Shown: piece after piece, positions 11,375-60,028 of the stretch
Position numbering within the stretch: position 1 is the stretch's first letter
How the letters are laid out: each line of letters starts with the position of its first letter
From: Heptranchias perlo
Lineage: Eukaryota
Assembly: GCF_035084215.1 (NCBI RefSeq)
Contig: NC_090327.1
Span: 106,454,001 to 106,518,000 of the forward strand
Reading direction: 5' to 3'
Length of the DNA: 64,000 nt
The notes under the pieces: generated by a model
Database searches by the model: none
The model's input: the letters and a program-made list of their open reading frames with translations, nothing else
Told to the model about the DNA's origin: nothing
Position numbers and translations under genes: made by a program

Positions 11375-11411
11375 TCACAAGCTTTCGGAGGCTTTCTCCT
11401 TTGTCAGGTGA
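11375..11411 (-). ncRNA. Minimal hammerhead ribozyme motif, core mutated (CUGACAA)
   Basis: UCAC-CUGACAA-A-GGAG AAAGC CUCC-GAAA-GC-UU-GUGA on the minus strand; G8>A change at a CpG. Confidence 0.65.
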
Positions 11412-12890
11412 GTGAGTGTGGGATTCCATGGAAGGTTACCGCATTCATATTCAGAGAACAATACCTGGTGATTACAGATAATCTTTCCAACTGCCCATTG
11501 TCAAGGCAATCAAAGTGTTCAGACAGAGTGATGTTACCGACAGGACCACCGAATACACATTTTCTTCCTATGGACCCATGGCGAAGAATCACTAAAGAGA
11601 CTACACGATAACATCAACAAGTTCCATCCCACCATCAAGCTCACCATGGACTACTCCTCAGAATCGGTTTCTTTCTTGGACACACGAATCTCCATCAAAG
11701 ACGGGCACCTCAGCACCTCACTCTACCGCAAGCCCACGGACAACCTCACGATGCTCCACTTTTCCAGCTCCCACCCTAACCACGTCAAAGAGGCCATCCC
11801 CTATGGACAGGCCCTGTGAATACACAGGATCTGCTCAGACAAGGAGGAACGCGATGGACACCTACAGACGCTGAAAGATGCCCTCGTAAGAACGGGATAT
11901 GACGCTCGACTCGTCGATCGACAGTTCCGACGGGCCGCAGCGAAAAATCGCATAGACCTCCTCAGAAGACTAACACGGGACGCAACCAACAGAGTACCCT
12001 TCGTCGTCCAGTACTTCCCCGGAGCGGAGAAACTACGCCATGCTCTCCGCAGCCTTCAACATGTCATCGATGACGACGAACTACTCGCTAAGGCCATCCC
12101 CACACCTCCACTACTCGCCTTCAAACAGCCACCCAACCTCAAACAGACCATCGTCCGCAGCAAATTACCCAGCTTTCAGGAGAACAGCGTCCACGACACC
12201 ACACAACCCTGCCACGGCAACCTCTGCAAGACATGCCAGATCATCGACACAGACACCACCATCACACGAGAGGACACCACCCACCAGGTACATGGTTCAT
12301 ACTCCTGTGTCTCGGCCAACGTTGTCTACCTCATATGTTGCAAGAAAGGATGCCCCTGAGCATGGTACATTGGCGAGACCATGCAAGCACTGCGACAACG
12401 GATGAACGGACACCGCGCAACAATCGCCAGACAGGAGGGTTCCCTCCCAGTCGGGGAACACTTCAGCAGTCAAGGACATTCAGCCACTGATCTTCGGGTA
12501 AGCGTTCTCCAAGGCGGCCTTCGAGACACACGACAACGCAAAATCGTCGAACAGAAATTGATAGCCAAGTTCCGCACCCATGAGAACGGCCTCAACCGGG
12601 ATCTTGGGTTCATGTCACGCTACACGTTACCCCACCAGTGAACAAATGTTATCTGTTTTTAACACAACGGGTCATTCGCTGTCTTTCTCTTCCTTTCGGA
12701 TGTTTCTCTCCCTCTCTCTCTCTGTTTTGTGTTCTGGCCGTTTGTGTATTCGGTGGTCCTGTAGGTAACATCACTCTGTCTGAACACTTTGATTGCCTTG
12801 ACAACGGGCAGTTGGAAAGATTATCTATAATCACCAGGTATTGTTCTCTGAATATAAATGCGGTAACCTTCCATGGAATCCCACACTCGC

Positions 12891-12927
12891 TCACCTGACG
12901 AAGGAAAAAGCCTCCGAAAGCTTGTGA
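12891..12927 (+). ncRNA. Minimal hammerhead ribozyme motif in Penelope pLTR
   Basis: UCAC-CUGACGA-A-GGAA AAAGC CUCC-GAAA-GC-UU-GUGA; one stem II mismatch. Confidence 0.75.
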
Positions 12928-13599
12928 TTTTCAAATAGAACAGTTGGACTATAACCTGGTGTTGTTAGATTCCTTACAATTCAGTTCAGTGGCAGGGCTT
13001 CAAACTGCTTTCCCTTAGATGATGAAACGCTTCTGGTTGCTTCAGCTGCATCCATGCAGAGGAGTGGTGAATATTCCATAACACTCCTGACTTGAGACTT
13101 GTAGAGTGCAGAGATACTTTGAGGGATAAAGGGTACCAAGTTTTGACTTGCTCTTGCAGGCACAGTATTGATATACTGGTCCAGTTCAGCTTTATCAATG
13201 ATGAGTCCCAAGAAGTTGATTATGGAGAACTCAGCAATAGTGGTGCCACTGAAGGTCAGGGGCAGATGGTTGAGCTTTTTCTTGTTGAAGATGGTAATTT
13301 GCTGGCACTAATGTGGCACGAATGTTATCTGCTTCTTGTCAGCCAAGCATGGATGCTGTTCAAGTCCTGTTGTAGGCCGGAAAGGGCTGTTTTATTATCC
13401 CGACTTCTTTCCCTACCTTGAAAAGACTTCCTAAAATTCATTTTTATGACCAAGCTTTTAGTCACCTCGCCTAGCTCTCCCACAATAGCTCAGCATCTGT
13501 TCCCTTTTTTTAAAAAAAAGCATCTATAAAGTGCCTGGAGACATTTTTCGATGATAAAGGTGCTTTATAATTACCAATTGTTGCAGTTGTTCATAATTT

Positions 13600-16500
13600 T
13601 TTAGCATACTCAAAGAATTAAAGATTCTCAAAGATGTAACAGGAAAACATCTAGAAACCAAAAGTACAATAAAGAATAGTCAGCACGGATTTCAAAAGGG
13701 AAGGTCATGCTTGACCAACCTTATTGAATTTTTTGAAGAAGTAACAGAGGGTAGATAAGGGTAATGTAGAAGATGTAATATATTTGGATTTTCAAAAGGC
13801 CTGGGATAAGGTAGTAGACTCATGACTAAGGTTAGAGCATGTGGGGTCAGGGGACAAATAGCAGAATGGATAGCAAGTTGGCTACAAAACAGAAAACAGA
13901 GAGTAGGTGTTAAAGGTAGTTACTCAAACTGGCAAAAGGTAGGAAGTGGTGTTCCAAAAAATTGGTGCTGGCACCACCGTTGTTCACAGTTTACATAAAC
14001 GATTTGGATTCAGGAATCGGAAGTACAATTTCAAAATTTGCAGACGACACCAAATTGGGGGGGTATAGTTAATACTGGGGAGGACTGTGACAAAATAAAG
14101 AAGATATTAAAAAACTTGCAGAATGGGCCTGTAATTGGCTAATCAATTTTAATATAGATAAGTGTGAGATGGTACGTTTTGGTAGGAAGAATAAGTTGGC
14201 CTCATAGTCCTTGGAAAATAAGAGTCTAATTGGGTAGAGGAGCAGAAGGATCTGGAGGTACAGATACGCAAATCACTAAAAGTAGTGATGCAAGTTAATA
14301 AGGCCATAAAAAAAAAAAAACAAAGCACTGGGGTTCATTTCTCGAGGGATAGAACTGAAAAGCAGGGAAGTTATGTTAAACTTGTAGAGAACCTTGGTTC
14401 GACCACACTTGGAGTACTGTGAACAATTGTGGTCTTCATATTACAAAAAGGATATATAGAGGCACTGGAAAAGGTGCAGAAAAGATTTACTAGGATGATA
14501 TCAGAAATGAGTGGTTATACCCATCAAAGCAGTGGGAGACATTCAAAGGGGTGATTCAGGGGTTCAGGGTAAACATGCTCCCACAAAGAAAAAGGGAGGG
14601 GCTGCCAAATCTAGAGCCCCCTGCATGTCAAGAAGCATTCAGGGTAAGATAAAGCAGAAAACGAAAGCCGATGATAGACACCGGGAACTCAAAACTATGG
14701 AAAGCTTAGAGGAGTATACAAAATGCAGGGGTGAAGTTAAAAAGGAAATTAGGAAAGCAAAGAGAGGGTATGAAAAAATATTAGCAGGTAAAATCAATGA
14801 AAACCCAAAGATGTTTTATAACTACATTAAGAGCAAGAGGATAACTAAGGAAAGAATAGGGCCTATTAGAGACCAAAAAGGTAAACTATGTGTCGAGGCA
14901 GAAGATATGGGTATGGTTCTTAATGAATACTTTGCATCTGTCTTTACAAAGGAGAGGGATGTGTAGGGATTGAAGTTAAGGAGGAGGAGTGTGAAATATT
15001 GGATGGGATAAACATAGTGAGAGAGGAAGTATTAAGGGGAAGTGCTTTGTTTTTTTTTATGGCCTTATTAACTTGCATCACTACTTTTAGTGATTTGTGT
15101 ATCGGTACCTCCAGATCCCTCTGCTCCTCTACCCAATTAGACTCACTTGAGCCAGATGAAATGTATCCCAGGCCGTTAAAAGAAGCCAGGGAGGAAATAG
15201 CAGAGGCTTTAACAATCATTTTCCAAACTTCACTGGATACAGGAGTAGTGCTGGAGGATTGGAGGACTGCTAACATTGTACCGTTGTTTAAAAAGGGAGC
15301 AAAGGATGGAACGGGTAATTACAGGCCAGTCAGCCTAACCTCGGTGGCGGGTAAATTATTGGAATCAATTCTGAGGGACAGGATAAACTGTCACTTAGAA
15401 AGGCACGGACTAATCAAGGACAGTCAGCACGGATTTGTTAAGGGAAGGTCGTGTCTGACTAACTTGATTGAATTTTTCAAGGAGGTGACAAGGAGAATCA
15501 ATGAGGGTAGCGCAATTGATGTAGTCTACATGGATTTTAAGCAAGGCTTTTGACAAGGTCCCACATGGCAGACTGGTCAAAAAAGTAAAGGCCCATGGGA
15601 TCCAAGGGAATGTGGCAAATTGGATCCAAAATTGGCTCAGTGGCAGGAAGCAAAGGGTAACGGTCCACGGGTGTTTTTGTGACTGGAAGGCTGTTTCCAG
15701 TGGGGTGGCGCAGGGCTTGGTACTAGGTCCTTTGCTTTTTGTGGTATACGTTAACGACTTGGACTTAAACGTAGGGGGCATGATTAAGAAATTTGCGGAT
15801 GACACAAAGATAGGCCGTGTAGTTGATAAAAAGCTATAGACTGCAGGAAGATATCAATGGACTGGTCAGATGGGCAGAAAAGTGGCAAATGGAGTTCAAC
15901 CCGGAGAAGTGTGAGGTAATGCATTTGGAGAGAGCAAACAAGGCAAGGGAATACCCAATAAATGGGAGGATACTGAAAGGTGTAGAGGAAGTGAGGGACC
16001 TTGGAGTGCATGTCCACAGATCCCTGAAGGTAGCAGGACAGGTAGATAAGGTGGTTAAGAAAGCATATGGAATGCTTTCCTTTATTAGCCAAGGCATAGA
16101 ATATAAAAGCATCGATGTTGTGCTGGAACTGTATAAAACACCAGTTAGGCCACAGCTTGAGTACTGTGCACAGTTCTGGTCACCACATTACAGGAAGGAT
16201 GTAATTGTACTAGAGAGGGTGCAGAGGAGATTTGCGAAGATGTTGCCAGGACTGGAGAATTTTAGCTATGATGACAGATTGGATAGGCTGGGGTTGTTTT
16301 CCTTGGAACAGAGGAGGCTGAGGGGTGATTTGATTGAGGTGTACAAAATTATGAGGGGCCTAGATAGAGTGGATAGGAAGGACCTATTTCCCTTAGCGGA
16401 GGGGTCAATAACCAGGGGGCATAGATTTAAAGTTTTTGGACTAAGGATTAGAGCAGAAATGAGAAAAAAATTTTCACCCAGAGGGTAGTGGTAGTATGGA

Positions 16501-17085
16501 ACTCACTGCCTGAGAGGGTGGTAGAAGCAGAAATCCTCAACTCATTTAAAAAATACCTGCATGTGCACCTGAAGAACTGTGACCTGCAGGGCTATGGACC
16601 AAATGCGGGAAAGTGGGATTATGCTGGGTGGCTTGTTTCTCAGCCGGTGCGGACACGATGGGCCGAATGGCCTCCTTCTATGCTGTAAGTTTTCAATGAA
16701 TCTATCTATGAAAGATTGAACAGGCTCGGGCCCTTTTCTCTAGAAAAGAGAAGACTGAGGAGTAACCTGATAGAGGTCTTTAAGATTATGAAAGGGTTGG
16801 ATAGGATAGACGTAAAGACAACCAGAACTAGGAGCCATAAATATAGATAGTCACTACTAAATCCAATAGGGAATTCAGGAGAAATGTCTTTACCAGAAAG
16901 TGGTTAGAATGTGGAACGCTCTACCACAAGCAGTAGTTGAGGCAAACAGCATAGATGCATATAAGGGGAAGCTAGATAAATACATGAGGGAGAAAGGATA
17001 TGTTGATAGGCTTAGATGAAGAAGGGTGGAAGGAGGCTCATTTGGAGCATAAACCCTGGCATGGACCAAATGGTCTGTTTCAGAC
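13600..17085 (+). mobile_element. Older CR1 LINE (13600-14527 and 16706-17085) interrupted by a younger CR1
   Basis: QHGFQKGRSCLTNL, FADDTKL; sequence resumes after 16705 (gaaagattgaacagg) where it broke off at ~14527. Confidence 0.8.
14528..16705 (+). mobile_element. Younger CR1 LINE nested in older CR1
   Basis: ORFs 14511-16688: NYRPVSLTSV, QHGFVKGRSCLTNL, FADDTKIG, RPQLEYCAQFWSPHY; CR1 3' tail. Confidence 0.92.
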
Positions 17086-17796
17086 TGATTTGAGTTTTTC
17101 GTCTCGTGTTCTTTTTTTCTCTCTCTCCTTCCCCTGCCTCTCTTTCTCTCCCTCCCTCTGTTACACACAGGCCCATCATCTTTCAACATTAGACTCATTC
17201 CAAACTGACTGCTTTATAATTTGGAATTAAAACTGATCCTCTTATTGCTATCTGATGGGCTCTCAGTCTGTTCCAATTCCTTTTCCTTTCCACATCAGAG
17301 GCTATTTTGAAGTCTGTAATTGTCGACCCTGTGAGAGAATGATTTGTTGGGAGGAGGTAAATATTCTTGTGGAACGAATTGCAATGAAAAGTTTGTATTC
17401 CCGGGGTTGTTGGTGAGGTAAAATTGAACAATCGTAAATGTCTGTTTGCTATGGGAGATTTTACTGTAATTTAACATCTGAAAAGATCAATTCAATATTT
17501 TTATGAAGTAGAAGTTCTGAAGGACTGCATAGATTAGAACAATGACCTATCATCGCTGGGATAAGAGTTTGAATTTAGCTCAGGATGATAGAACAAATAT
17601 CTATGCAGAAAAATTGAGATAGCCCCTGTAACATGCATAAGATTGTCTGTTTGAAGAAATGTTTCTAAAAAAAAGTCTCTGGGATGTAAGTCTTCACGAG
17701 ACATTTTAAACAAAACTATGTTATCTTTCCTTTTCTTGCACTATAGAAGAATGTTAGTGGGCAGGCACTTTGTTCTTTTTAATCTTTGGAGACATT

Positions 17797-20349: not shown

Positions 20350-21433
20350 ATTGTTGCAGCCACAAGCAACTTCAGATTCCTAGAAGGTCTTTCATTCTTC
20401 TAACTTCACTTAATTCAGCCATTGTAGTTTTAAATTCTTCTAACTGTGCCCATTTGGATACCTCTAATTCATCTTCCTCGCATAGTCTTTCACATTAGCC
20501 TAAATGCGTATGTCTCACATTCAATGAACCTCAATCACCTCATAATTCCTCACTGTCCTCTTGCATTCCTTATCCTATTTCTATACTTCAAGTAACAGAA
20601 GAACAAAGAATTTTTTTTAGGCATTTCAACTATTTTTTCTGACTCTTAATGTTCCTGTACTCTGCTAAACTAATATGATTACTAAACTTTTTAAATTTCA
20701 GTTTTAATGCCCATTAACTGTTTTTATTGTGAGTGTCCTTTAGCTTCACTGTGGCTTCTGAATAACTGAATCAAAGCGCGACATTCCTTTAAAATTCAAA
20801 CCAAATTCAAATCTACTATCATTTTGTTCTTTAAAATAGACTTCCAACAGATTAGAACTATAAATTTTATACATACACCCCAATGTGTAATCTTAATCAA
20901 TTTGTCAAGTTCCCCCCACCCCACCAAAAGCTGTTCTTTCACCATATGCAGGCAGGCGTCCCCTGCTCTAAGTCTCCAATAATACTAAAGCTTATTATTC
21001 TGGCTAGCAACATATTTGTACACCCGCTCACTTGAAGTATTATGTATTTCCTAACCTTGGCAAGTTTGACTGATATGCCGTTAGACCATTCTCCAAGAGA
21101 GCTTTTCAGGTGATGTGTTATAATTATATTACTACTATTTTACATTTCAGAGTCTCCATCATATATTTTAAGGAAAACATATTAACACAACATGCTTTGC
21201 TAATATTATAATATACATTATAAATGATTAATTGAAGTGTACAATGCATTTAAGTGGTTCTTAAAAATATATGTTTTTTCAAATTTAAAAAAAATAGAAT
21301 ATTGTACAACTGGTGAGACACAAGGTCTATTAAGCCATCTCACCACCTCACAATCCAAATTCATTGGACACTGGAACATATTGAAATGAGCTTGGTGCAT
21401 ATATGATTTATTAAAATATGCATGTTAAAATAT

Positions 21434-22980
21434 GAATCACAGAAAATTTACGACACAGAAAGAGACCATTTGGCCCATCGTGTGCACGCCGGCCATAAAT
21501 GAGCAACCCAGCCTAATCCCACTTTCCAGCACTTGGTCCGTAGCCTTGTAGGTCATGGCACTTCAGGTGCAGATCCAGGTACTTTTTAAATGAGTTGAAG
21601 GTTTCTACTTCTCCCACCCTTTCAGGCAGTGAGTTCCAGACCCCCACCACCCTCTGGGTGAAAAGATTTTTCCTCAGCTCCCCTCTAATCCTTCTACCAA
21701 TCACTTTAAATCTATGCCCCCTGGTTGTTGACCTCTCTGCTAAGGGAAATGGGTCCTTCCTATCCAATCTATCTAGGCCACTCAATTTTGTACACCTCAA
21801 TTAAATCACCCCTCAGCCTCCCCTGTTCCAAAGAAAACAACCCCAGCCCATCCAATCTTTCCTCATAGCTAAAATTCTCCAGTCCTGGCAACATCCTTGT
21901 AAATCTCCTCCGTATCCTCTCTAGTGCAATTATATCCTTCCTGTAATGTGGTGACCAGAACTGTACACAGTTCTCCAGCGGTGGCCTAACCAGTGTTTTA
22001 CACAGTCCCAACATAACCTCCCTGCTCTTGCATTCTCTGCCTCAGCTAATAAAGGAAAGTATTCCATATGCCTTCTTAACCACCTTATCTACCTGTTCTG
22101 CTACCTTCAGGGATCAGTAGACATGCACTCCAAGGTCCCTCCCTTCCTCTACACCTCCCATTTATTGTGTACTCCCTTGCCTTGTTTGCCCTCCCCAAAT
22201 GCACCACCTCACACTTCTCCGGATTGAATTCCATTTGCCACTTTTCTGCCCAACTGACCAGTCCATTGATATCTTCCTGGTGTTTACAACTTTCCTCTTC
22301 ACTATCAACCACACAGCCAATTTTTGTATCATCTGCAAACTTTTTAATCATGCCCCCTATATTTAAGTCCAAATCATTAATACATATCACAAAACGCAAA
22401 GGGCCTATTACTGAGCCCTGCAGAACCCCACTGGAAACAGCCTTCCAGTCACAAAAATACCCATCGACCATTACCCTTTGCTTCCTGCCACTGAGCCAAT
22501 TTTGGATCCAGCTAGCCACTCTCCTTTGGATCCCATGGGCTTGAACTTTTTTGTCCATTCTGCCATGTGAGACCTTGTCAAAAGCGTTGCTAAAATCCAT
22601 GTAGATTACATCAAAAGCACTACCCTCATCGACCCTCCTTGTCACCTCCTCAAAAAACTCAATCAAGTTAGTCAAACACGATCTTCCCTAAACAAATCCA
22701 TGCTGACTGTCCTTGATTACTTCGTGCCTTTCTAAGTAACGATTTATCTTGTTCCTCAGAATTGATTCCAATAATTTGCTCACCACCAAGGTTAGACTGA
22801 CTGGCCTGTAATTATTTTTTCTATCCCTCGCTCCTTTTTTAAACAATGGTACCACGTTAGCAGTCCTCCAATCCTCCGGCACCACGCCTGTATCCATTGA
22901 GGATTGGAAAATGATGGTCAGAGCCTCTGCTATTTCCTCCCTTGCTTCTTTTAACAGTCTGGGATACATTTCATCCGGCC
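21434..22980 (-). mobile_element. CR1 LINE, 5'-truncated
   Basis: ORFs with [42 protein letters not shown]. Confidence 0.92.
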
Positions 22981-23923: not shown

Positions 23924-24086
23924 CAGGTGAACGGTGTGGGTGAACGGTGTCCACACCGTTCACCTGACGAAGGAGGAAGCCTCCGAAAGCTTGTGGAATT
24001 TAAAATAAATTTGTTGGACTATAACTTGGTGTTGTAAAATTGTTTACAATTGTCAACCCCAGTCCATCACCGGCATCTCCACATCA
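23924..24086 (+). mobile_element. Penelope family-1 3'-end mini-copy with inverted 5' segments
   Basis: Ends in catctccacatca; caggtgaacggtgtgg is the reverse complement of the adjacent ccacaccgttcacctg. Confidence 0.8.
23960..23996 (+). ncRNA. Minimal hammerhead ribozyme motif, intact core
   Basis: UCAC-CUGACGA-A-GGAGG AAG CCUCC-GAAA-GC-UU-GUGG. Confidence 0.8.
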
Positions 24087-24124
24087 TAGTTCAATTATAG
24101 TTGGGAACAGAAATGAGAGGCAAA

Positions 24125-25220
24125 AACCTCCACCATTTCCAGCACAATGCCACACCAAACACATCTTCCCCTCCACTCCCCGGTCAGCATTCTGAAGGGA
24201 CCGTTACCTCCGTGATACCCTGGTCAACTCTTCCATCACCCCCAACACCTGCTCCCCTTCCTCCGGCACTGTCCCATGAAAGCGCAGGAGATATAACACC
24301 TGCCCGTTCACCTCCTCCCTTCCCACCATTCAGGACACCAAACACTCTTTCCAAGTGAAACAGCAATTTACTTGTACTTCTTCCAACTTAGTATACTGTA
24401 TTCGCTGCTCACAATGTGGTCTCCTCTACAATGGGGAGACCAACTGCAGATTGAGTGATCATTTTGCTGAGCAGCTCCGTTCAGTCCACAACTGTGGCCC
24501 TGAGCATCCGGTCGCTTGCCACTTTAATTATCCATCCCATTCTGATCTTTGACTTGGCTTTCTACACAGTTCCAATGAAGCTCAACGCAAGCTCGAGGAA
24601 CAGCACCTCATCCTTCTATTGGCCACTTTACAGCCTACCGGCCTTAAAATTAAGTTTAACAACTTTAGACCTTAATCACTGTTCTCATTATCTCTCGGAA
24701 GCAGGTACTGGTAATGGAGGAGGGCTGCATCAGACCCACTGGGAATGGAAGAGGTTTGGACTGGTGATTGGAGTGGGGATCCCCCATTGGTACACAGCCA
24801 TTGGGGTGGTTTGCGCCCCTGCGGTCTACCTGCATTTCTTCCGCCACATTCCTGGGCCACAGGAACAGTTTCCTCTTTGCCAGGTTTTCCTTGCTTCTCT
24901 GCTATTCTGCTGTAACCAGTTACAACTCCTCTGGACCCATCTTTTGTTTTTATACTTGTCTCATTATCATCTCCTTTTGCCTTACACCACATCACTTTTG
25001 TCATTTAATCACTCCTGCCCTCCACCCTTTCACAGACCTCTCTCCTTTGTTCTCTTCCTGCCCCTTTTCCCTGGCATTGCACTAGCTTAAAAGTTATTCC
25101 ACTCTAACACCTTCCAGTTCTGAAGAAAGTATCATTGACCTGAAACGTTGACTCTGTTTCTCTCTCCACAAATGCTGTCTGATCTGTTAAGTCTTTCCAG
25201 CATTTTCTGTTTTTATTTCA
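24125..25220 (+). mobile_element. Penelope family-2 3' fragment (GIY-YIG region plus tail)
   Basis: KQQFTCTSSNLVYCIRCSQCGLLYNGET..VACHFN; tail with hammerhead-like motif and ccagcattttctgtttttatttca end. Confidence 0.8.
25116..25153 (+). ncRNA. Degenerate minimal hammerhead motif (family 2)
   Basis: AGUU-CUGAAGA-AAGUAUCAUUGACCU-GAAA-CG-UU-GACU; stem II partly disrupted. Confidence 0.55.
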
Positions 25221-25284
25221 AACCTGAATCCTGTTTAAAATGCAATTCATTTTCATAAATTATATCTGACATTTGAATACATAC

Positions 25285-36549: not shown

Positions 36550-37714
36550 AAAACAAGCAGTCACTTGTAATTTTCCAAAGGCAACAATCAAATAAACCAT
36601 AACAGTCTAAGGCTTTTAGAAGTCACAGTTTGCTTTTGGGAGGCATTTTGGATCTGAATTTCTATTTCGACTCCCTAATTTCTGTAGAGCTGCTGGTTTG
36701 ACAAAACTTGTACAGATTTTTTCCAGATCATTCAGTTTTTCTGGTTTTAGAAATAGCATGTGTTCTTGTACAGGGCACCGGAATGATGACTCAGAGGAGG
36801 TCAGAAAGTAGTAACTTGAACTCCCTTTGTCAGTGGGCAAATGGCCCATGTAGTGCAACACTAAACCACATAGACCATCAAGGTCCAAGGCTGCCTGACT
36901 TGCTGAGCTTCTCCAGCATTTTCTGTTTTTATTTCAGATTTCCAGCATCTGCAGTATTTTGCTTTTGATGCGGGATTCAATTACTGGTCTATACCGAGGC
37001 ATTCAATCCTAGTCAGGTGCCGCAATGAGCATCAGCCAAATACAGACCAGGGCTCCCCAGCCTCATAACTATCCAGAAACCGCTGTTGGAAGTGTGTACA
37101 CATCGAAAAGAAAGAGAACATTAGTTGGGCAGCCCACTGATAATCTGTGTCCATGTTTACATACAAAGAATAGTCGCATAGATAAAATGAAGTACTGAAC
37201 AGACCCCAGAATGAGTCACTACTTTCAAGAAAACGAAGAGCAAACAATTGGAGGGGATTAAAAAGACGTAACACCTTTTAGAGCATGGGTGACTGGACAC
37301 CGCACATGTTAACTCTATGACAAAGAGCAGGGAAATTGTACTAAATGTTAACTTCTATTGTCTTTGCATAGTTCTTGGAGCAAATCTTGTATGCGTCACC
37401 CTAGAACACTATCATAACTGGAGTCAGCAAGGTATCAGACCCATTGCTGGAAAAATGCACACTGCCTAGCCTTCAGAGGGACTTTACATAAGTTTCTCTG
37501 AAGAGTTGCCTCCACGGATCTAACGGTAAAATTTGTACTGAAAATGAAAGTTTCATCAAAATTCACATATTTTGCTTTGTTTTAAAACTGTTATTGCTCA
37601 TCAATACTTTAAACCATTTGTCCCTGATTGTTGCGCACTGTGACTATAATTCTTGTATTACTGTGGAACCCCGTTAAGTGCAAACATTTTACTGAACATA
37701 ATATTTATACTTAC

Positions 37715-40408: not shown

Positions 40409-40937
40409 CTAAATGGGCAACAAAAATAAATTACAAGTTTACAGGATAACATCATAAGATATAAGGTTATCTTTTTAAATGGTACACTAGTTCATTCAAC
40501 TCTTGACTGCTGGTATTTTTCACATGCATACTCCTGGCTTGCTGAACCATTTTGATATAAAATTATAACTGTGAAATCATGTACAATCTAATGCAACTCA
40601 TTATATTAAATAAAAAAACAAAGTAAAAGTCTTCAACTCTACTGTGAATAAATATACCTCATTAGTCTTATCAAACAGCACCACAATTCAGTAGTAAGTT
40701 TAAGAGTGGTTATGGCATTTTTTTTTTCACTTCAAAGTATAGATGCAAGTTGGATCAGTGTCTCAAAATGAATGCTGATATACAAGGATGCTTAGAGGTT
40801 CAAGAAAATATCACATTGTTTTCTGAAAATACCTATGATACAGAACCTAAATACAGAATCCAGGATATATCTCAATATAATACACATTCTATTTCAATAA
40901 TGAAAAGGCATGCAACAAAAACACTTATTTTCAGATA

Positions 40938-41093
40938 TGATGTGGAGATGCCGGTGATGGACTGGGGTTGACAAATGTAAAGAATCTTACAACACCAGGT
41001 TATAGACTCACCTGACGAAGGAGGTAATCTCCGAAAGCTTGTGATTTTCAAATAAAATTGTTGGACTATAACCTGGTGTTGTAAGATTCTTTA
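40938..41093 (+). mobile_element. 156-bp fold-back Penelope mini-element with 12-bp TSD
   Basis: TSD tattttcagata at 40926-40937 and 41094-41105; inverted arms ~40978-41005 and ~41066-41093. Confidence 0.88.
41008..41044 (+). ncRNA. Minimal hammerhead ribozyme motif, intact core
   Basis: UCAC-CUGACGA-A-GGAG GUAAU CUCC-GAAA-GC-UU-GUGA. Confidence 0.8.
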
Positions 41094-42629
41094 TATTTTC
41101 AGATACAATAACCTATCTGTAGTAACAACAAATAAAGTAACTGAAACAAAAATGTTTGAAAGTTGGCAATTTACAGTGCTTAGTCTATTTTAGAATTATT
41201 AATATCTTAGAATTATTCTTCAATTTCTTACATTTACAACCATGTCCTGGAAGAGTGTGCAGGAGTATCCCATGAGTAATGTGTTTCTCCCTCTCCCCTC
41301 TAGAATAGGCAGCTCTGGATCAACTTTCAGGCCAGTCTGAAGTGCTATCTTCCATTGAGATAAAGGAAGCTACTCCAGGACATACACAGTCCTGCTACAC
41401 AGTACATGTCACAGAGCAACTGAAGAGGGAAGCAGAGCTGGAATGGAGATTTTCGATGAAACGAGGAAAATGCATATTTCATAAATCTTGCATTGCATCT
41501 GGTGTGCAAGTCCATTTCACTTCAAAGTGTCAAAATTATATATAAAAAAAGAGTAAGCCAGACTTTACTGGCTTTTCCAATGTTGATAGACTCGCTACTC
41601 CCCAAGGACAAGAGCCAGGATTATCAAGAACATGCCAACCTTTAGAAACGTTCTCAATAAACAGCATCAGGACATGCAAGTTCCCAATAAGGAGTATCTG
41701 AGCAATGCCTTACAGAGACAGGCCATGTTAAGCAAAGCTCCACCTCAGTAGCGAAACATCACAACTCTCCTTCAGACCCAAACTACCTATGAGCAGCACC
41801 ATGGGAGGCGAGATATCAATCTATCTCATCTGCATGCACTTCTTTTCAACTTTTTACATTATGTCCACACATAACAGAAATTGCCTGTGTAAATTTGTCA
41901 TGCTGTAATTACACCATTGCCCCCCCTTGAGAGCGAGGGGGAAATGGATGAAGGGATGAGTCAGGTGACTTTTACAACAGGCTGAGGGGGAGGGAGGATA
42001 CAGGGGTTGAGTAAGTAGTTCAAAGGACAAGAGGTAAAGGTAGCACTAAAAGTGAGTAGCGATAGCAATGGAAGTGAGGGGGTCATTAGAACTGGAAGAC
42101 GTAGTAGAAAGGCAAAGGGATAGGGGAATAACAAGTAATAGGGGAGAGGAAGGGAAGGGACCAAGAGGATTACAGGCCTCATTTTCCCTGCAGCCCCCCC
42201 CCCAGTAGAAAATGTGGCCTTGAGCTTTCCGTGGCTCCTTTTCCTACCAGGCCATCAGTTCCCACAGAAAGGGTAGAGCAGAAAGGATAGAGAAGAAAAG
42301 ACGACTGGGAAAGTAGAAGAGGACAGAGAGAGAAGCAAAGAGAGTTAGGGAGAAAGAAAAGAGAAAAAGCGATTCAGAAGCAAAAGAGCAGAAACAGAGA
42401 GAAACAGCACAAGAGAGCACAGTAGTCTCTAACTTACTGTGTGTAAAGCAATGGGAAATAGTTTAGTATACAAGAATAAATCTTAAAACAGATCAGGTTG
42501 GGGAGGGGAATAGTTTGAACAAAAAAGCATTGCCTAGACTCTCCTTTCCCTTTAGTAATTTAGCTTGAGGTCTCACTAACAGAGCATTTCATTTGAAGAA
42601 TGTAATAAATGAAAGTTCAGGGATCTCAC

Positions 42630-50060: not shown

Positions 50061-50262
50061 AATATGTAGCGTCGCTCCTATTTTCCTGTTACCTGTAACT
50101 TCACATTGTTATATTTTAGGAATTATTTGGCTAGAAAGAAGAACTTTAATGTCCAACTACATATGAACAATTAGAATCTTCACAAAGGTCATCAAAGGGA
50201 TAAATATGTACTTTGTTTACGCATCCTGTATAGTTAGAAGAAACAAAATTATAGCTTCTCAC

Positions 50263-50434
50263 CTTGAAAAAGGATTTGCCAGTGTCTTCTAACTGTAAAT
50301 CAATAGATTTATCCAATATATACAAATTAGATGCACTGTTGAGTACACTTCCTTGTAATGCAGGCTGTTTATTGGAGGCTCCTTCTTCATTTACCAGGTA
50401 CGACATCAAATGTGTAAGAGCTACAGAGCGCACT
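50263..50434 (-). CDS. RTTN: Rotatin exon VRSVALTHLMSYLVNEEGASNKQPALQGSVLNSASNLYILDKSIDLQLEDTGKSFFK
   Basis: Inside ORF 50146..50445; aatag acceptor, gtgaga donor, 172 nt, phase 2/0. Confidence 0.92.
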
Positions 50435-50892
50435 CTATTGAACAAATAGATAGAAAGATCAAATAATTCTTCAGAGTTAAAAACAAGAAGATTATATTGC
50501 CAAAAAAGTGATCACAGCTATCAGACCAGGCTAATTATAAATAAGGTAGCTAATGTTCTTGGTGCATGTCAAGTTTGGTACATAGGTAGAATAGGAGTGG
50601 AATCACTTCAGTTCAAAGCTGCCATTTTGATAATGATTTGATTTTAAAATTGGACTTGTGAATGAAATCGTTCTAGTTATTATTAGAACTATTGAACATA
50701 CAACAGTAAATAAAAGGTGCTTTTTGTTTAGCTAAGTGCCTGACCTTTAACAGTTCAAATCATATTTGAACAATCGATTCAAAAGTGTTCAACTGCAAAA
50801 ACTAGTAAAGATTATCTTGCCTTGTAGACTCATCCTTCAGCTTGGAGGATTGTGATTTTAACAGGAGAAATTGATGAGAATATTACTGTACG

Positions 50893-53800
50893 TGATTGTG
50901 AAGGGTTTAGATAAAGTAAATAAAGAGAAACTGTTCCCATTGGTGGAAAGGTCGAGAACCAGAGGACACAGATTTAAGGTGATTGGCAAAAGAACCAAAG
51001 GCAACTTGAGGAAAAACTTTATTATGCAGCAAGTAGTTATGATCTGAAATGCACTGCCTGAATGGGTGGTGGAAGCAGATTCAATCATAGAATCATAGAA
51101 AGTTACGGCACAGAAGGAGGCCATTCAGCCCATCGTGTCCGTGTACGCCGAAAAAGAGCTATCCAGCTTAATCCCACTTTCCAGCACTTGGCCTGTAGCC
51201 CTGTAGATTACGGCACTTCAAGTGCACATCCAAGTACTTTTTAAATGAGTTGAGGGTTTCTGGCTCTACCATCCTTTCAGGCAGTGAGTTCCAGACCCCC
51301 ACCACCCTCTGGGTGAAAAATTTCTTCTCAGCTCCCATCTAATCCTTCTACCAATTACTTTAAATCTATGCCCACTGGTCACTGACCCCTCTGCTAAAAG
51401 AAATAGGTCCACCGTATCTCGTCCCGACTCTTCAATTATTCTCTTAAATTTCTCCTGTTAAAATCTCTATCCTCCAAGCTGAAGGATGAGTCTACAAGGC
51501 AAGATAATCTTTACTAGTTTTTGCAGTTGAACACTTTTGAATCGATTGTTCAAATATGATTTGAACTGTTGAAGGTCAGGCACTTAGCTAAACAAAAAGC
51601 ACCTTTTATTTCCTCTTCTATGTTTAAGAGTCCTAATAATAACCAAAACAATTTCATTATGCTTCAATTAAATCTCCCCTCAGCCTCCTTTGTTCCAAAG
51701 AAAACAATCCCAGCTTATCCAATCTTTTCTCACAGCTAAAATTCTCCAGCCCTGACAACATCCTCATAAATCTCCTCTGTACCCTCTCTAGTGCAATCAC
51801 ATCTTTCCTGTAATGTGGTGACCAGAACTGTACGCAGTACTCAAGCTGTGGCCTAACCAATGTTTTATACAGTTCTAGCACAACCTCCCTGCTCTAATAT
51901 TCTATGCCTCGGCTAATAAAGGAAAGTATTCCGTATCCCTTTTTAGCCACCTTATCTACCTATCCTGCTACCTCAGGGATCTGTGGACATGCACTCCAAG
52001 GTCCCTTTGTTCCTCTACACCTATCAGTATCCTCCCATTTATTGTGTACTCCCTTGCCTTGTTTGCCCTCCCCAAATGCATTACCTCACACTTCTCTGGA
52101 TTGAATTCCATTTGCCACTTTTCTCCCCACCTGACCAATCCATTGATATCTTCCTGCAGTCTACAGCTTTCCTCCTCACTATCAACCACATGGCCAATTT
52201 TTGTATCATCTGCAAGCTTCTTGATCAAGCCCCCTACATTTAAGTCCATATCATTAATATATACCACAAAAAACAAGGGATCTAGTACTGAGCCTTGCGG
52301 GACCCCAGTGGGAACAGCCTTCCAGTCGTAAAAACACTTGTCAACCATTACCCTTTGCTTCCTGCCACTAAGCCAATTTTGGATCCAACTTGCCACTTTC
52401 CCTTGGATCCCATGGGCTTTTACTTTTTTGACCAGTCTGCTGAGTGGGACCTTGTCAGTAGCCTTGCTAAAATCCATGTACACTACATCAAACGCACTAG
52501 CCTTATCGACCCTGCTTGTTACCTGTTCAAAAAATTCAATCAAGTTAGTCAGACACAACCTTCCCTTAACAAATCCATGCTGACTGTCCTTGATTAACCC
52601 GAGCTTTTCCAAATGATGATTTATGCAGTCCCTCAGAATCGATTCCAATAATTTGCCCACCACCGAGGTTAGACTGACTGGCCTATAATTACTCGGTCTA
52701 TCTCTTTTTCCCTTTTTAAACAACGGTACAACGTTAGCAGTCCTCCAATCCTCCGGCACCACGCCTCCCTTGCTTCTCTTAGCAGCCTGGGATAGATTTC
52801 ATCCGAGCCTGGAGAGTTATCTACTTTCAAAGATGCTAAACCCCTTAAAATACTTCCTCTCTCGCTATGCTTATCCCATTCAATATTTCACACTCCTCCT
52901 CCTTAACTACAATCTCTGCATCGTCCCCCTCTTTTGTGAAGACAGACACAACGTATTCATTAAGAACGATACCCACATCATCCGCCTACACACATAGGTT
53001 ATCTTTTCGGCCTCTAATAGGCCCTACTCTTTCCTTAGTTATCCTCTTGCTCTTTATGTATTTATAAAACATTTTTGGGTTTTCTTTAATTTTACTTGCC
53101 AGTACTTCTTCATGCTCTCTCTTTGCTTTCCTAATCTTCTTTTTAATTTCACCCCGGAATATTCTATACTCCTCTAGGCTTTCTGCAGTATTGAGCTCTT
53201 GGTGTCTGACATAAGCTTCCCTTTTTTGCCTTATCTTACCCTGTATGCTCTTTGTGGGAACACATTTACTCTGAACCCCTTGAATCTCCCCCTTGAATGC
53301 CTCCCACTGTTCTGACACTGATTTACCTTCAAGTAGCAGTTTCTAGTCCACTTTTGCTAAATCACTTCCCAGCCTTGTAAAATTGGCCTTTCCCCAATTT
53401 AGAATATTTACTCCTGTTCTTTGTCCTTTTCCATAACTATGCTAAATCTAACTGAATTATGATCACTATCACCAAAATGCTTTCCGACTGATATTCCTTC
53501 CACCTGCCCAGCTTCATTCTCTAAAACTAAATCCAGAACTGCCCCCCCACCCCTGTTGCGCCCTCTATACCTTTTGCACTGATTGCATCCCAGTTAATAT
53601 TAGGGTCGTTGAAATCCCCTACTATTACTGCCCTATTGTTTTTGCACTTCTCAGAAATTTGCCTACATATTTGCTCTTCTATCTCCCTCTGACTGTTTGG
53701 GGGTCTATAGTACACTCCAAGCAGTGTAACTACCCCTTTTTTGTTCTTTAGCTCAACCCATATGGCCTCATTTGATGATCCTTCTAACATATCATCTCAC

Positions 53801-54075
53801 AGCCGTAATTATTTCTTTAACCAATATGGCCACCCCCCCACCCTTTTGTATCCCCCTCTTTATCTCGTCTGAAAACCCTGTAACCAGGAACATTGAGCTG
53901 TGGCTTTCAAAAAGGAATTTGATAAATACTTGAAGGGAAAACATTTGCAGGGCTACGGTGAAAGAGCGGGGGAATGGGACTAACTGGATTGCTCTTACAA
54001 AGAGCCGACACGGGTTCAAAGGGCTGAACGGCCTCCTTCTGTGCTGTAACCATTCTATGATTCTATGACTCTATG
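50893..54075 (+). mobile_element. CR1 3' fragment (50893-51085 and ~53901-54075) split by nested CR1
   Basis: gcagattcaatcat ... ggctttcaaaaagg is contiguous in the uninterrupted relative at 32726-32752. Confidence 0.8.
51086..53900 (-). mobile_element. Young long CR1 (endonuclease plus RT) nested in an older CR1 tail
   Basis: GGGVAILVK, GVYYRPPNS, IVGDFN; 264-aa RT ORF 51968..52762; catagaatcataga tail repeat. Confidence 0.92.
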
Positions 54076-54079
54076 TGTA

Positions 54080-54900
54080 AAATGGAGAATGTACAAGTTT
54101 ATGAAGAACAAGATTTCAGTTCAGATATTGCAGGATTTTGCATAGGGTTAGATTTCTAAATCATTCACAAGAGACAGGAAATGCAAGGATGCTCTCCAAC
54201 TTCTTCAGTTACTCCAGTGGGTAATCTAATAGGAACTTGGCATCAGACTCATGTTGACGAGAAATTGCAGCTACTCCAAAATAACTGCAAATTCTCAAGA
54301 GAAAACAATGTTCTAAGCACCACAGAACATTCCTTCATTTGGTATCAAAAGTATGTTTAGTAGAATTTCCTGGCTGCCATCATTCCCTACCACTTTGAAC
54401 AGTAAGCCATTAGTTTCTCTCCTTTTCAGTAGCAAAGCTGTCAAGGAGAGGTTAATAGCACATCAGGCCATCTAGCTGTGATGGAAGGTCCTGTATGTGA
54501 GACACATGAAAACCATATTTTTGTGGGCCAGTGTGGGGTTATGACAGTTACGCTGGTGACCTTTACCTGAGGATTCTGTAAATGAGAGAGAATGGAGCGA
54601 AGGCAAAAAGAAATATTCCATTTCATGAAATGCGACACAATTCAGATTCCAAGTTCAGGGATCTCAATTTCTGGAACAGAGAGCCAGTGAACATCTTGTT
54701 GTAAAACACCAGGAAGAACTGCAGCTCCAGAAAACGCCACATCTTAAACAGGCCAATGATCACCTCTGAGTACAGAGTCCATTTGCGAGGATTATTTAGA
54801 TTCCGGCTGAGAAGCAGACAAATGCTAAATTGATAGGATTATGGTCGGGATCACAAAAGGGATCCAGTACAAAAACACAATTTTTGTCACAGCTTGATAA
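54080..54900 (-). mobile_element. Second decayed DIRS1-like element (RNase H end, MT-like domain, YR N-terminus)
   Basis: Manual translation: LSRNLNNPRKWTLYSEV..MW, FAFAPFSLIYRILR, VTVITPHWPTKIWFS, MMAARK.STKHTFDTK*, VGEHPCIS. Confidence 0.75.
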
Positions 54901-55526
54901 AGGTAATGAATGAAATCAAGCTCCCTTTGTGGCTGGGCCCAAATAGTGTCAGCAGCTGTACCAAAATAAATGAGCCAAGGTTAGAGTGGCGACTAGTGAC
55001 CATCACAGTCATATTCATAGAAGGTGACATAGATCAACCTGAACTGACGTCCATGAGAACCTTTCAGTTGAGGTTGGTCTGTGGTCAAGACTTACGCTAA
55101 TTTATAATGACCTGCCGTCACAAAAAACGTGACTAATTTCCACAAATGGCTGATGCCCAAAGTGTCCCTATATACAACAGAAGAGCATCAAATAGGCATT
55201 CCTCAAAAATGCCTTAAAGGGTGGCTCCCCTATTATTCTCACCACAGGCATCCTTGAGCTATAACATGTGGGGATACTGGAATGTAGAAGAAATTAGATA
55301 ACCTCAGAATTTCAACCATTTAACTAGCGCACTGCCAATGCAGAAGTAAAGTGGCTCCTTTATCTAGAACCGGATCCCATATCTGTAATAAATCGATGAA
55401 GGACAAACCAATAATACAAATCATATCTGGCTAGAGATTTGCGTCAAATACTCCCAATCTAGTCAATTTCTTGTAATGGCTGTGGAATGCTATTATAGCA
55501 CAAGAAAAGATCCCGTTATTCTTTGC

Positions 55527-55975
55527 CAAAAGTAAAATATTGCGGGGATGCTGGAAATCTGAAATAAAAACAGAAGATGCTGGAAATACTCAGCAAGTCA
55601 GGCAGTGTCTGTGGAGAAAAAAAGTTAACGTTTCAGGTCAATGACCCTTCGTCAGAACTGGAAGTTGAAGATTAAACAGTTTTTAAGCAAGTACAGAGCC
55701 AGGAAAAGGGGGGAGAAAGGGGAGGGGAGGAAAGAACAAAAGAGAAGGTCTGTGATAGGGTGAGGGCAGGAGTGATTAAATGACAAAAGGGATGATGGTG
55801 TAAGGCAAGGAGGGTGGTAATGGGACAAGTAAAGAAACAAAAGATAGGTCTAGAGGAGCTGTAAATGGGAAGATCAGAACCATTACCAGCACTTGCTCTC
55901 TGAAAAAAAATGTGAGTAGTGGTTATGATTTGAAGTTATTGAAATCAACATGGAGTCCAGAAGGTTGTAAATTGA
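55527..55975 (-). mobile_element. Penelope family-2 3' tail
   Basis: Reverse complement is similar to 24630-24720 and 24920-25220. Confidence 0.78.
55623..55659 (-). ncRNA. Minimal hammerhead ribozyme motif, intact core, sense to RTTN
   Basis: AGUU-CUGACGA-A-GGGUC AUU GACCU-GAAA-CG-UU-AACU. Confidence 0.78.
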
Positions 55976-56956
55976 TTATTCTTTGCGATGTGTTGTAGCC
56001 TTAACCCTGCATGGCACTTGTGTTTTGTCATTGCTGTTGGAACTGTCATTTTACCTCCATTGCTTCTCTCAGTTTTACTATTATTAGATTTCTATGTGCA
56101 GTATACTCTTTGACAAAGTGCCTTTTATCTTATTGTTAACTTCACATATCTCTTTTAGAGATTATAGTTGATTTAAACTGGCATAGAAATGTAATTTTAT
56201 GTTCAAGCATTGTCTGAACAACTATTAAAAAACTGAGGGAGGAATAAACTATCTTCATACTTTCTTCCTACAAATAAACTGTGAAATTTTTCATTCCATC
56301 TGGACACAGGATGAAAGGTAAATTGCTACTATTGAAAAACAATGAAAAGTTTCACCCCAACCTGTATTAACTTCCTATGTTCCTCCATTTACCAGCTGAG
56401 AAGCCTGGCAAGTGAGTTGCTCCTACACTTCTACAATCAATGAAGCACCATAGCTGGTTATTTGGAGGTGTTCTGGAGATCCCCTTGTCATGTGGGGAAG
56501 CACCTTGCCTACAAAATGGCACCTCACTCAGATAGGATAGTGAGATTGGGAGCCAGCATGTGGCCTATTGTGCTTACCAACATCTTACAGCTCAATCGTG
56601 CAGCATGTTCGTACAACACAAACTGTGCCACAACTCTACCACAACAAGATCTTTACTCATTCATTTTCTTTATTTTTTTGTATAGTTACACAAAAATTTT
56701 GTAGGTTATCAATAAAATATTAGCATTTATATGTTACTCTGACAAAGGATGCTAAAGATTTAATTGTAATATAAAAGTATTACTTTCCAAACAGTAGAAT
56801 CTAGCATATGCTTCATGCTGTTGAAATTATCTGGCATGACTGAGTTCTTTCTAACTGTTTCAATATTTCTCCCAACAATAATCCAAGAAATGTTGTGCAT
56901 TGCTGTAACTCAGTTTTGATTTAATGAAATCACACCAAAGAAAGTAGAAAAAGGAA

Positions 56957-57490
56957 GTGCATTTTTATAGCGCCATTCCCGACGTCTGGACATTCCAAAG
57001 AGCTTCACAACCAACAAAGTACTTCTACATAGAATTTTACAGCACAGAAACAGGCCATTCAGCCCAACAGATCTATACCAGTGTTTATGCTCCACACGAG
57101 CCTCCTCCCTCCACCTTACTTCATCTCACCCTATCAACATATCTTTTAATGAAGTCACTGTTGTAACTTAGGGAAACACAGTAGCCAATTTGTGTACAGC
57201 AAGGTCCCACAAACAACAATGACCAGATAATCTGTTTTAGTAGTTTTGATTGAGGGATAACTATTGGCCAGGACACAAAGACATCTCCTCTGGTTTTCTT
57301 TGAATAGTACCATGGGATCACTAAAAACAGATTAACTGGTCATGTGTGTTTGTGGGACCTTGCAGTGTATATATTAGTTGTCGCATTTTCCTACAATACA
57401 ACGGACTTCAAAAGTTCTTCATTGGCTGTGAAGTGCTTTAGGTATGCCCTGAGGACATGAAAGGCGCTATATAAATGCAACTTCTTTCTT
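56957..57490. mobile_element. Two inverted DeuSINE fragments, the left one interrupted by a CR1 tail (~57027-57145)
   Basis: 56957-57320 on the minus strand and 57318-57490 on the plus strand both match 38204-38420. Confidence 0.65.
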
Positions 57491-57574
57491 TTTCTAATTT
57501 GCTGAAGTTTACAGGGTTGCATCTCAGTATAATGTAAGAGTGACTTCTTTTAAAATAAATTAAAATATGCTTAC

Positions 57575-57714
57575 AAATGTTGTTTGCTCATAAAAAGTCG
57601 AAGAGATGCACGAATCCTGGCTGTCCTCGATAGAATGCCAGAAGTCGCTTCATTGCATGGCTCACTCAGTGCAAGGATGCAGCTTCCTAGTGGGCCTTCT
57701 GTAGTTGCAAAGCC
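57575..57714 (-). CDS. RTTN: Rotatin exon GFATTEGPLGSCILALSEPCNEATSGILSRTARIRASLRLFMSKQH
   Basis: tgtag acceptor, gtaagc donor, 140 nt, phase 0/2; aligns to RTTN GYADTEDPLGNCILLLS. Confidence 0.92.
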
Positions 57715-59714
57715 CTACAAAAACCACAGAACACAATAATGTGTGGGGATACTTCAAACTGTAACAATAAACTTTTTTGACTCAAAAGGCAGATGTTCTT
57801 AACTGTGACATTTAAATCAGTAGCTTTTCTGTGATATATCCCATCCTAATGAACTAACAATATTTGTACTTTTATAGGAGCACAAAGCAACATTTTCAAA
57901 CTGCACGTGTACAAAACGATCCCATGTCAAGATACAATGATATAACAAAGGAAGTGATCTGCCAAACCATCTGCATTTAGTCGGGGCATCCAAGGTTTCT
58001 GAGAAGTTGTACCAATCAGGAAAGGGGTACAACCCAAAACCCAATGAGACATATTAAGGTTGACCATCTTTATGAACTGTGGTCAAACCCCATCCAAATC
58101 ACAATGGGGGAAGAGGACAAAATACCAGCAGTACAAGGGAGCTTAAAACAAATTCAAAAGGCAGGGGGTGGAGTGGGATTTAGTGGATTTAATATAGATA
58201 ACAAAAATGGTATGGAGAAAATAATGGGACTTAAGATAGACAAATTTTCAAGATCTGATGGTTTCCACTGCAAAAGAAATAGGTGAGGAAATTGCAGATG
58301 CATTAGTCATAATTTTCCAAAGCTCTCTAGATTCAGCAATTGTGCCTTTAAAATCAGAAAATAGCAAATATCATTCCATTGTTTAAAAACGGAGGGAGGG
58401 AGGGAAAAAACAGATAACTACAGACATTGACAGTTTAACATCAATTGTAGGGAAATTCCTGGACTGAGCACTTAAACAAGTATGAGCTGATCAAAGAGAG
58501 TCAGCATGGATTTCTGAAGGGTAGGTCATGTCTAACTAATCCAGTTAAATTTTTTTGAGGTCACCAGCATGGTAGGTAGTGTCTATGGATGTTGTCCATA
58601 TGGGCTTCCAGAAGGTCTGATAAGGTTCTGCATAAGAGATTATTAGCATAAATAAGAACCATGGAATTGGAGGTAACCTTGTGACATGTGCTGATAATTA
58701 GTTGGAAGGTAGGAGACATGGAGTAGGGGTAAAGGGTACATTCTCCGATTGGCAGGATGTGACAAGTGGTGATTCCCCCAGCGATCAGTACGGGGACCTC
58801 AGCTTTTCACCATATATGAATGACTTGGATGAAGGAAGAGAGTTGTATATCCATGTTTACAGATGACACTAAATTAGGAGGTACAGTAAGTTGTGTAGAT
58901 AGGAGGAAGTTACAAAGAGACATAGACAGGGTAAGTATGTGGGCAAAACTATGAGAAATGGAGTTAAATGTGGGGAGTATGAGGTCATCCTCTTTGGATC
59001 TCAGAAAGACAAATCAAAATATTTTCTAAACGATGAGAGACTAGGAGCTGTAGAGGAGCAAAGGGATTAATGTGTCTATGCACACAAACCATTAAAAGTT
59101 AGTGTACAGATACAAAAAGCAATCAAAAAGGCTAATGGAATGTTGGTTTTTGTTTCAAGGGGATTGGAATACAAAAGTGAGGCAGTGATGCTTCAGCTGT
59201 GCAGAGCCTAAGTCAGACCCTATCTGGAGTACTGCATTCTGTTCTGGGCACTGGGCCTCAGGAAAGATACATTGGCCTTGGAAGGGGTGCAGTGCAGATA
59301 CACCAGAATGTTTCTGGGGTTGAGGGTTATATTATGAGGACATAAATTTGGCTTGTATTCCTTTGAGTTTAGAAGGTTGAGGGGTAATTTAATAGAGGTA
59401 TTTAAAATCATTAAGGGATTTTATAGGGTACATAAAGAGAAAAAATTTCCTTTGGTGGAGGAATCCAGAACAAGGCGGCATAATCTTAAAATTAGAGCTC
59501 GGCAATTTAGGAATGAAATGAAGAAGCACTTTTTCACACAAAGGGTAGTGGAAATCAGAAACTTGCTCCCCCAAAAGGTTGTGAATGCTGGGCTGATTGA
59601 CATTTTCAGGACTGAGATCGATAGACTTTTGTTAGGGAAGGATATCAAGGGATATGGAGCAAAAGCAGGTAAATGGAATTAAGGTACAGATCAGCCATGA
59701 TCTATATTGAATGG

Positions 59715-60028
59715 TGTGGAGATGCCGGTGATGGACTGGGGTTGACAATTGTAAATAATTTTACAACACCAAGTTATAGTCCAGCAATTTTATTTTAAAT
59801 TCACAAGCTTTCGGAGGCTTCCTCCTTCGTCAGGTGAACGATGTGAAAATGAAATCCTCGAAATGAAATCGCATTTATAATTCACAGAACAATGCTTGGT
59901 GAGTACAGACAGTTTTTTCAACTGCCCGTTGCCAAGGCAATCAGTGTGCAGACAGACAGGTGTTACCTGCCAGGTCTCACAGAATTCTGTGACAACTGTC
60001 TGTACTCACCAAGCATTGTTCTGTGATT
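59715..60028 (-). mobile_element. Penelope family-1 pLTR copy with 5' inversion and 12-bp TSD
   Basis: TSD tatattgaatgg at 59703-59714 and 60029-60040; 59994-60026 is an inverted copy of 59882-59914. Confidence 0.87.
59800..59838 (-). ncRNA. Minimal hammerhead ribozyme motif, intact core, sense to RTTN
   Basis: UUCAC-CUGACGA-A-GGAGG AAG CCUCC-GAAA-GC-UU-GUGAA. Confidence 0.82.

Follow-up and report, generated by a model that had tools for sequence, protein, structure and literature searches.

Probable minimal type-I hammerhead ribozymes in truncated copies of two Penelope-like families, most likely Neptune, within rotatin introns of a shark

Minimal hammerhead ribozymes of metazoan Penelope-like elements were characterized by Cervera and De la Pena in 2014 (PMC4209133), whose hallmarks for these motifs are an extra nucleotide separating positions 9 and 10.1, a G10.1–C11.1 pair and palindromic positions 15.2–16.2, in a consensus that has H at both the extra position and position 17. 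The paper cites a viroid precedent for the extra nucleotide, reports such motifs in the fish elements Xena, Poseidon and Neptune (its published examples also include Tetraodon, Latimeria and Chrysemys), and describes opposite-strand pairs as well as copies that are mostly single and truncated. According to Craig et al. 2021 (PMC8557442), an inverted 5' copy and a one-sided tail of 30–40 base pairs (bp) are typical of these elements, and a zinc-finger-like linker is typical of Neptune and Nematis, while a recent preprint (bioRxiv 10.64898/2026.07.22.740005) reports, for vertebrates, only Neptune and Poseidon. Here, we compare these systems with a stretch of 64,000 nucleotides (nt) from the shark Heptranchias perlo (NC_090327.1, positions 106,454,001 to 106,518,000 of the forward strand), hereafter the window, within which motifs were searched and counted unless stated otherwise. 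Seven motifs in it are very probably minimal type-I hammerheads in the pseudo-LTRs (LTR, long terminal repeat) of two Penelope-like families, most likely Neptune, in truncated and likely inert copies located in introns of the gene rotatin (RTTN).

All seven motifs of the original prediction were found at the positions and on the strands it had given. From 5' to 3', each is made of a helix I strand, the box CUGANGA, one extra A, a hairpin of 13–14 nt, GAAA, two bases, UU and the 3' strand of helix I. The core boxes (CUGANGA and GAAA), U16.1 and H17 are present in 6/7 copies, the exception being the copy at 11375, whose first box reads CUGACAA (G8 changed to A), as had already been noticed; the extra A after A9 and the U at position 17, also noticed then, hold for all seven. 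Helix I is 4–6 bp long throughout, while helix II has 4–5 contiguous pairs in five copies, three in the copy at 12891 and two in the copy at 25116. The earlier separation into two families with different stems around the same core is borne out, since two unrelated stem sequences flank one core. Positions 15.2–16.2 are GC in five copies (all family 1) and CG in two (family 2), within the palindromes AGCU and ACGU, respectively; they are palindromic in 7/7 copies, and a self-duplex is predicted. The G10.1–C11.1 pair occurs in every family 1 copy (5/5), whereas family 2 departs from it, with G10.1–U11.1 at 55623 and a disrupted pair at 25116. As for the stem II loops, described earlier as AAG, AAAGC and GUAAU, the copies do differ from one another, but not through separate loops: there is one 13-nt hairpin, of which the fifth pair is G–C, broken or G–U.

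Four of the seven copies (23960, 41008, 59800 and 55623, named after their first reported positions) look intact and three appear damaged. Among the former, three belong to family 1: 23959–23997 (+ strand; C3/N17 at 23964/23992), with 5 bp in both helix I and helix II; 41008–41044 (+; C3/N17 at 41012/41040); and 59799–59839 (−; C3/N17 at 59833/59805), with 6 bp in helix I and 5 bp in helix II, in sense orientation to rotatin. The fourth, at 55623–55659 (−; C3/N17 at 55655/55627), is a family 2 copy, likewise sense to rotatin, in which the core is intact and the closing pair is the G10.1–U11.1 wobble. Regarding the damaged copies, the family 1 motif at 11375–11411 (−; C3/N17 at 11407/11379; sense to rotatin) lies in an inverted 5' pseudo-LTR, and its G8 to A change, located at a CpG, is among the 10 differences between two 239-nt inverted arms (compared with 12900 of the partner arm). 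In hammerheads, G8 pairs with C3 (PMC8495972), and therefore this copy with A8 is likely dead. The family 1 motif at 12891–12927 (+; C3/N17 at 12895/12923), in the 3' pseudo-LTR, has kept its core, but its helix II contains an A–C mismatch found in no other copy (12906 is G in ~99% of the depth of run X1). Finally, in the family 2 motif at 25116–25153 (+; C3/N17 at 25120/25149), helix II has collapsed to its two contiguous pairs.

The motifs occupy a fixed place in the elements: those at 12891 and 25116 come immediately after GIY-YIG remnants, that at 55623 follows the end of one, and the other four match these 3' ends. The most complete structure is a 5'-truncated family 1 insertion (11286–12981, +), composed of an inverted pseudo-LTR, an open reading frame (ORF) remnant and a 3' pseudo-LTR. 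Its two arms (239 nt) are 96% alike, and a 35-nt tail is found only on the inverted arm (11286–11559), the 3' pseudo-LTR having none. The ORF remnant (11562–12638, +) has two in-frame TGA stops and includes the C-terminal part of the reverse transcriptase (RT), a CX4CxxC linker and a GIY-YIG endonuclease; it is 93% identical over 355 amino acids to the shark protein P0002, which features an RT domain (PF00078, precomputed annotation) along with YIDD, CX4CxxC and GIY-YIG (motif search). Domain calls were based on such precomputed annotation of homologues and on motif searches; Pfam scans, run on pieces of the ORF and on read-throughs, yielded nothing that reached a curated cut-off. Other family 1 copies are a tail-to-tail insertion of 163 nt (40936–41098), in which an inverted 3' end with its tail (40936–41005) is followed by the forward hammerhead (41008) and 3' end, an arrangement that is a shortened version of 11286–12981; a tailed pseudo-LTR fragment that also has an inverted 5' piece of 39 nt (59711–60032, −) and sits in a CR1-like fragment; and a solo 3' end of 138 nt with a tail (23951–24088, +), headed by the 23960 hammerhead. 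Candidate direct repeats, each with one mismatch, flank three of these insertions (13 nt at 11286–12981, 13 nt at 40936–41098 and 16 nt at 59711–60032). Family 1 is very abundant and shared among species: 18,379 contigs of run X1 fall on a 441-bp stretch of it, as do 4,102 and 22 contigs in the runs of two other organisms.

A few further observations concern family 1. The RNA of the 40936–41098 insertion is predicted to form a long hairpin (−68.6 kcal/mol), in the loop of which hammerhead helices I and II would still form, and the insertion could represent a short non-autonomous form or a truncation that happened once. Just upstream of the 23960 hammerhead, short nested fold-back repeats (23924–23966) probably reflect template switching at the 5' junction. 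Two of the five family 1 copies start at most ~15 nt upstream of C3, and in several runs there are contigs whose loose ends fall at 12890–12894; starts near 12880–12895 could mean a preferred truncation at the hammerhead or the divergence of subfamilies upstream of it. Moreover, two shark proteins, P0017 and P0019 (annotated as XRCC5 and PPP1R12A-like isoforms), each contain ~100 amino acids matching the family 1 ORF (92% and 74% identity, respectively), which may be exonised pieces or annotation artefacts.

Family 2 is represented by two 3' fragments with a hammerhead. One (24127–25220, +) retains a decayed linker and GIY-YIG region (to ~24672), the 3' region, the hammerhead and a tailless end, whereas the other (55527–55943, −) comprises the end of the endonuclease frame, the 3' region, the hammerhead and a tail of ~33 nt. 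The coding remnant (24127–24672) shows 54–55% identity to ray proteins that carry CX4CxxC and GIY-YIG, two of the four also having YIDD; the linker, decayed in the window, is whole in 3/4 of these relatives. The endonuclease remnants of families 1 and 2 share 30% identity, and a 100/99 branch separates the two families in a tree of 17 proteins (out of 18, P0022 having no linker match and being left out). Both families are Penelope-like elements combining a GIY-YIG endonuclease with a CX4CxxC linker, and their clade is most likely Neptune, given the linker type (PMC8557442) and the vertebrate record of Neptune and Poseidon in the 2026 preprint. The original reading is supported on this point: the terminal repeats of both Penelope-like families contain minimal type-I hammerheads whose helix III is palindromic. 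As an aside, further family 2 remnants devoid of hammerheads occur at 5108–5935 (+), 9133–9169, 36887–36967, 60496–60608 and 62622–62816; they comprise part of an endonuclease together with short stretches of 3' end or tail, one of these being tail-to-tail.

At face value, the motifs might match a short consensus by chance. The pattern CTGANGAA-N10-20-GAAASSTT, however, has six matches in the window against 0.01 expected, a number reached in 0/100 shuffles, the 11375 copy being unmatchable by an exact pattern because its G8 changed to A. A generic descriptor (any extra base and any H17) likewise yielded six distinct sites, where 50 shuffles gave 0.04 on average, and no further copies; it misses 25116 because only two contiguous pairs are left there in helix II. 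Several results do speak against our interpretation, two of which would be expected if the matches were fortuitous: an Rfam scan returned six weak matches (E up to 5) and no hammerhead family, and no covariation is seen within the window, 0/10 pairs being altered on both sides among the five copies of family 1, which are too small a set for a firm answer. Owing to this lack of compensatory change, what supports the fold is its agreement with the published pattern, together with base-pairing potential; a possible flipped fifth pair in another organism is one weak hint, from loose contig ends of low agreement. The other adverse points are that a convincing flanking direct repeat is absent at two of the five insertions examined, that the active dimer is never the lowest-energy fold (6/6 copies tested) under a nearest-neighbour energy model, which leaves out the tertiary core, and that the clade name stands on the linker motif and a tree that includes no named reference elements. 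Nevertheless, considering the match counts, the fixed place of the motif in element 3' ends and the recurrence of one core within two unrelated stem sequences, a chance origin is next to inconceivable, and the seven motifs are, to judge from their sequences, real minimal hammerhead copies, three of them damaged.

Compared with the metazoan Penelope hammerheads of 2014 (PMC4209133), the shark motifs are alike in the CUGANGA/GAAA core, the extra base before helix II, the helix I of 4–6 bp, the lack of any helix III beyond palindromic positions 15.2–16.2, H17, the location in pseudo-LTRs, the prevalence of single truncated copies and the occurrence of close opposite-strand pairs; they differ from what is published there only in stem sequences and host. 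Helix II, at 5 bp in the shark, is shorter than the 7–8 bp of the Schistosoma families but similar to several rows of Fig. S3 of that paper, where G–U closing pairs also occur (e.g., Xenopus(1) and cichlids). With endonuclease-bearing (EN+) elements of the Neptune/Nematis type, as described in PMC8557442, the window has in common the C-terminal GIY-YIG, a linker of the CX2-5CxxC form, 5' truncation, inverted 5' copies and a tail of 30–40 bp at one end, but it holds no full-length element, and no named references entered the comparison. The hammerhead of PAc, a Poseidon element of Anolis (PMC11167929), similarly lies in a pseudo-LTR upstream of the 3' end and tail, with an uncut site in genomic copies; PAc belongs to another clade, Poseidon, and its activity has been measured, whereas the shark motifs were studied at the sequence level.

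Two other systems were compared. The viroid CChMVd carries, in its (+) hammerhead, the same A (A10) between A9 and G10.1, as stated in the original prediction (PMC1636495, PMC3705267), and a moderate decrease in trans-cleavage rate has been reported for this A10; yet the viroid hammerhead has contacts between loops 1 and 2 and gives no sign of kinship beyond the core that they share. Non-LTR retrozymes (PMC7229834; bioRxiv 10.64898/2026.07.22.740005) likewise have type-I hammerheads and ties to Penelope-like elements, and the preprint reports them in the single cartilaginous fish it sampled. In contrast to their head-to-tail tandem repeats, in which every unit has a hammerhead, the seven shark copies are dispersed or inverted. 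The retrozyme arrangement is absent here, same-family copies on the same strand being at least 11 kb apart.

The original prediction went further in proposing that the extra A and the NUU triplet, kept independently by both families, may define a distinct variant class. In favour of such linked features, both are found in 7/7 copies of two families that are distant from each other (30% endonuclease identity, 100/99 branch), and none of the 40 variant rows listed (with 33 more beyond) affects the extra A, U17 or a core position; a functional difference is even possible, as U17 would let the helix III of a dimer reach 6 bp through A14–U17. However, both features are within the consensus published in 2014 (PMC4209133), and the seven copies amount to just two independent observations. 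All 56 rows of Fig. S3 of that paper, which are not phylogenetically independent, were counted by hand from the PDF text, where columns are partly lost: the extra base is A in 30, U in 12, C in 11, G in 1 and absent in 2, while position 17 is C in 25, U in 24, A in 6 and G in 1. Extra A and U17 occur together in 11/56 rows against 12.9 if they were unlinked (Fisher p = 0.42). The same Fig. S3 has a Chrysemys (turtle) row with the extra A, U17 and the family 1 palindrome, and a Tetraodon (pufferfish) row with the extra A, U17 and the family 2 palindrome. These rows and counts indicate that the two features are common and unlinked. NUU is also already allowed by the NUH rule of hammerhead cleavage; according to PMC9217987, GUC and AUC are the most effective triplets, and of two GUU ribozymes one performed well and the other badly, but no cleavage rate for U17 relative to C17 was found there or elsewhere in the literature consulted. 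Nor is independent retention needed, since both families are of the zinc-linker type, and inheritance of a common plan suffices. A separate class is accordingly very unlikely, and the extra A and U17 are instead frequent variants at two positions that differ among the elements described so far.

Searches in other DNA returned hints that the same motif form occurs elsewhere. A metagenome scan whose pattern specified both the extra A and UU produced at least 113 loci (L001–L113), positions 15.2–16.2 being CG in 73, CC in 20, GG in 11 and GC in 9 of the matches listed; 15 of the 113 listed combine at least 3 bp in helix I, at least 4 bp in helix II and a palindrome. In prokaryote genomes, a similar but not identical pattern matched 84 loci, of which five passed, with no excess of CG, while two family 1 patterns had no match in viral contigs. 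We do not take the metagenome loci as proof, because their 300-nt flanks, compared by tblastn with five element proteins, gave no match for any of the 113 listed.

The entire window falls within rotatin (1–61469, −), identified through a protein search, with 18 exon matches to residues 322–1147 of the shark rotatin P0024. All seven motifs lie between exon matches and are thus intronic, three being sense and four antisense. The only close pair of the same family (11375/12891) is inverted, and the close pairs on one strand (23960/25116 and 59800/55623) mix families, for which pairing of the six-base palindromes is predicted at −0.2 kcal/mol, versus −4.3 and −3.5 kcal/mol for like with like. As no two intact copies of the same family are close on one strand, the genomic copies are probably inert, i.e., truncated relics. 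Their confinement to rotatin introns, with two intact-looking motifs (59800 and 55623) sense to the gene, might instead suggest that the host keeps some copies to cut or regulate the rotatin pre-mRNA. Yet four of the seven are antisense, the third sense copy (11375) has lost G8, and the two intact sense copies belong to different families, between which no palindrome pairing is predicted. In addition, copies deviate from their family by unpaired changes, as in neutral decay, and a single minimal motif of Schistosoma gave no cleavage, that of dimers and trimers being low (PMC4209133). Use by the host is therefore highly improbable, and inert relics of insertion remain our explanation. For completeness, the window also contains many decayed fragments of an RT-coding long interspersed nuclear element, putatively CR1-like, in both orientations (14200–17000, 21400–22980, 50660–53250 and others).

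How the motif would work in a live element can be sketched by analogy. A full element would carry two direct pseudo-LTRs on one transcript, as may be inferred from the 2014 and 2024 papers; pairing between the palindromes of its two motifs (AGCU or ACGU) may provide helix III for a double hammerhead, whose RNA may then be cut after U17, weakly and probably with the aid of the element's own protein. For the Anolis element, PMC11167929 describes a hammerhead that cleaves only with its protein and that in vitro insertion does not require; no ends at its cleavage site were found there by RNA-seq. In the shark, 7/7 genomic copies extend 58–100 nt past the predicted cut site, and the RNA template was therefore uncut at that hammerhead. 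The four sequencing runs examined consist of contigs, a form of data in which RNA ends do not show; no pile-up of ends appeared among those listed, which bears on neither expression nor cleavage. With A14–U17, helix III of the dimer is predicted to grow from 4 to 6 bp and to become 2.4–2.6 kcal/mol more stable in 6/6 copies. Modelling of this kind leads to a tentative idea, itself probably wrong, in which U17 would be a brake, A14–U17 locking the core until the element protein remodels the RNA, while the palindrome would be a family code, AGCU versus ACGU preventing the cross-cutting of RNA from co-resident families. It would apply to U17 Penelope hammerheads generally (24/56 of those published), beyond the present copies, and, if true, would partly account for the weak activity in vitro and for the sharing of one genome by several families.

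With respect to novelty, Fig. S3 of PMC4209133 includes no cartilaginous fish in its 56 rows, and we found no paper joining a shark genome, Penelope and the hammerhead ribozyme, although the supplements of the preprint may name these families; the word "shark" is absent from the main texts of PMC7229834 and bioRxiv 10.64898/2026.07.22.740005, though the latter sampled one cartilaginous fish. The motifs themselves are ordinary, both the extra A and U17 being inside the pattern published in 2014. Altogether, two shark families join a class of motifs known since 2014, which is of little importance as it stands. However, since family 1 is abundant and lies near an intact-looking protein (93% identity), sharks could suit testing the in vivo role of Penelope hammerheads.

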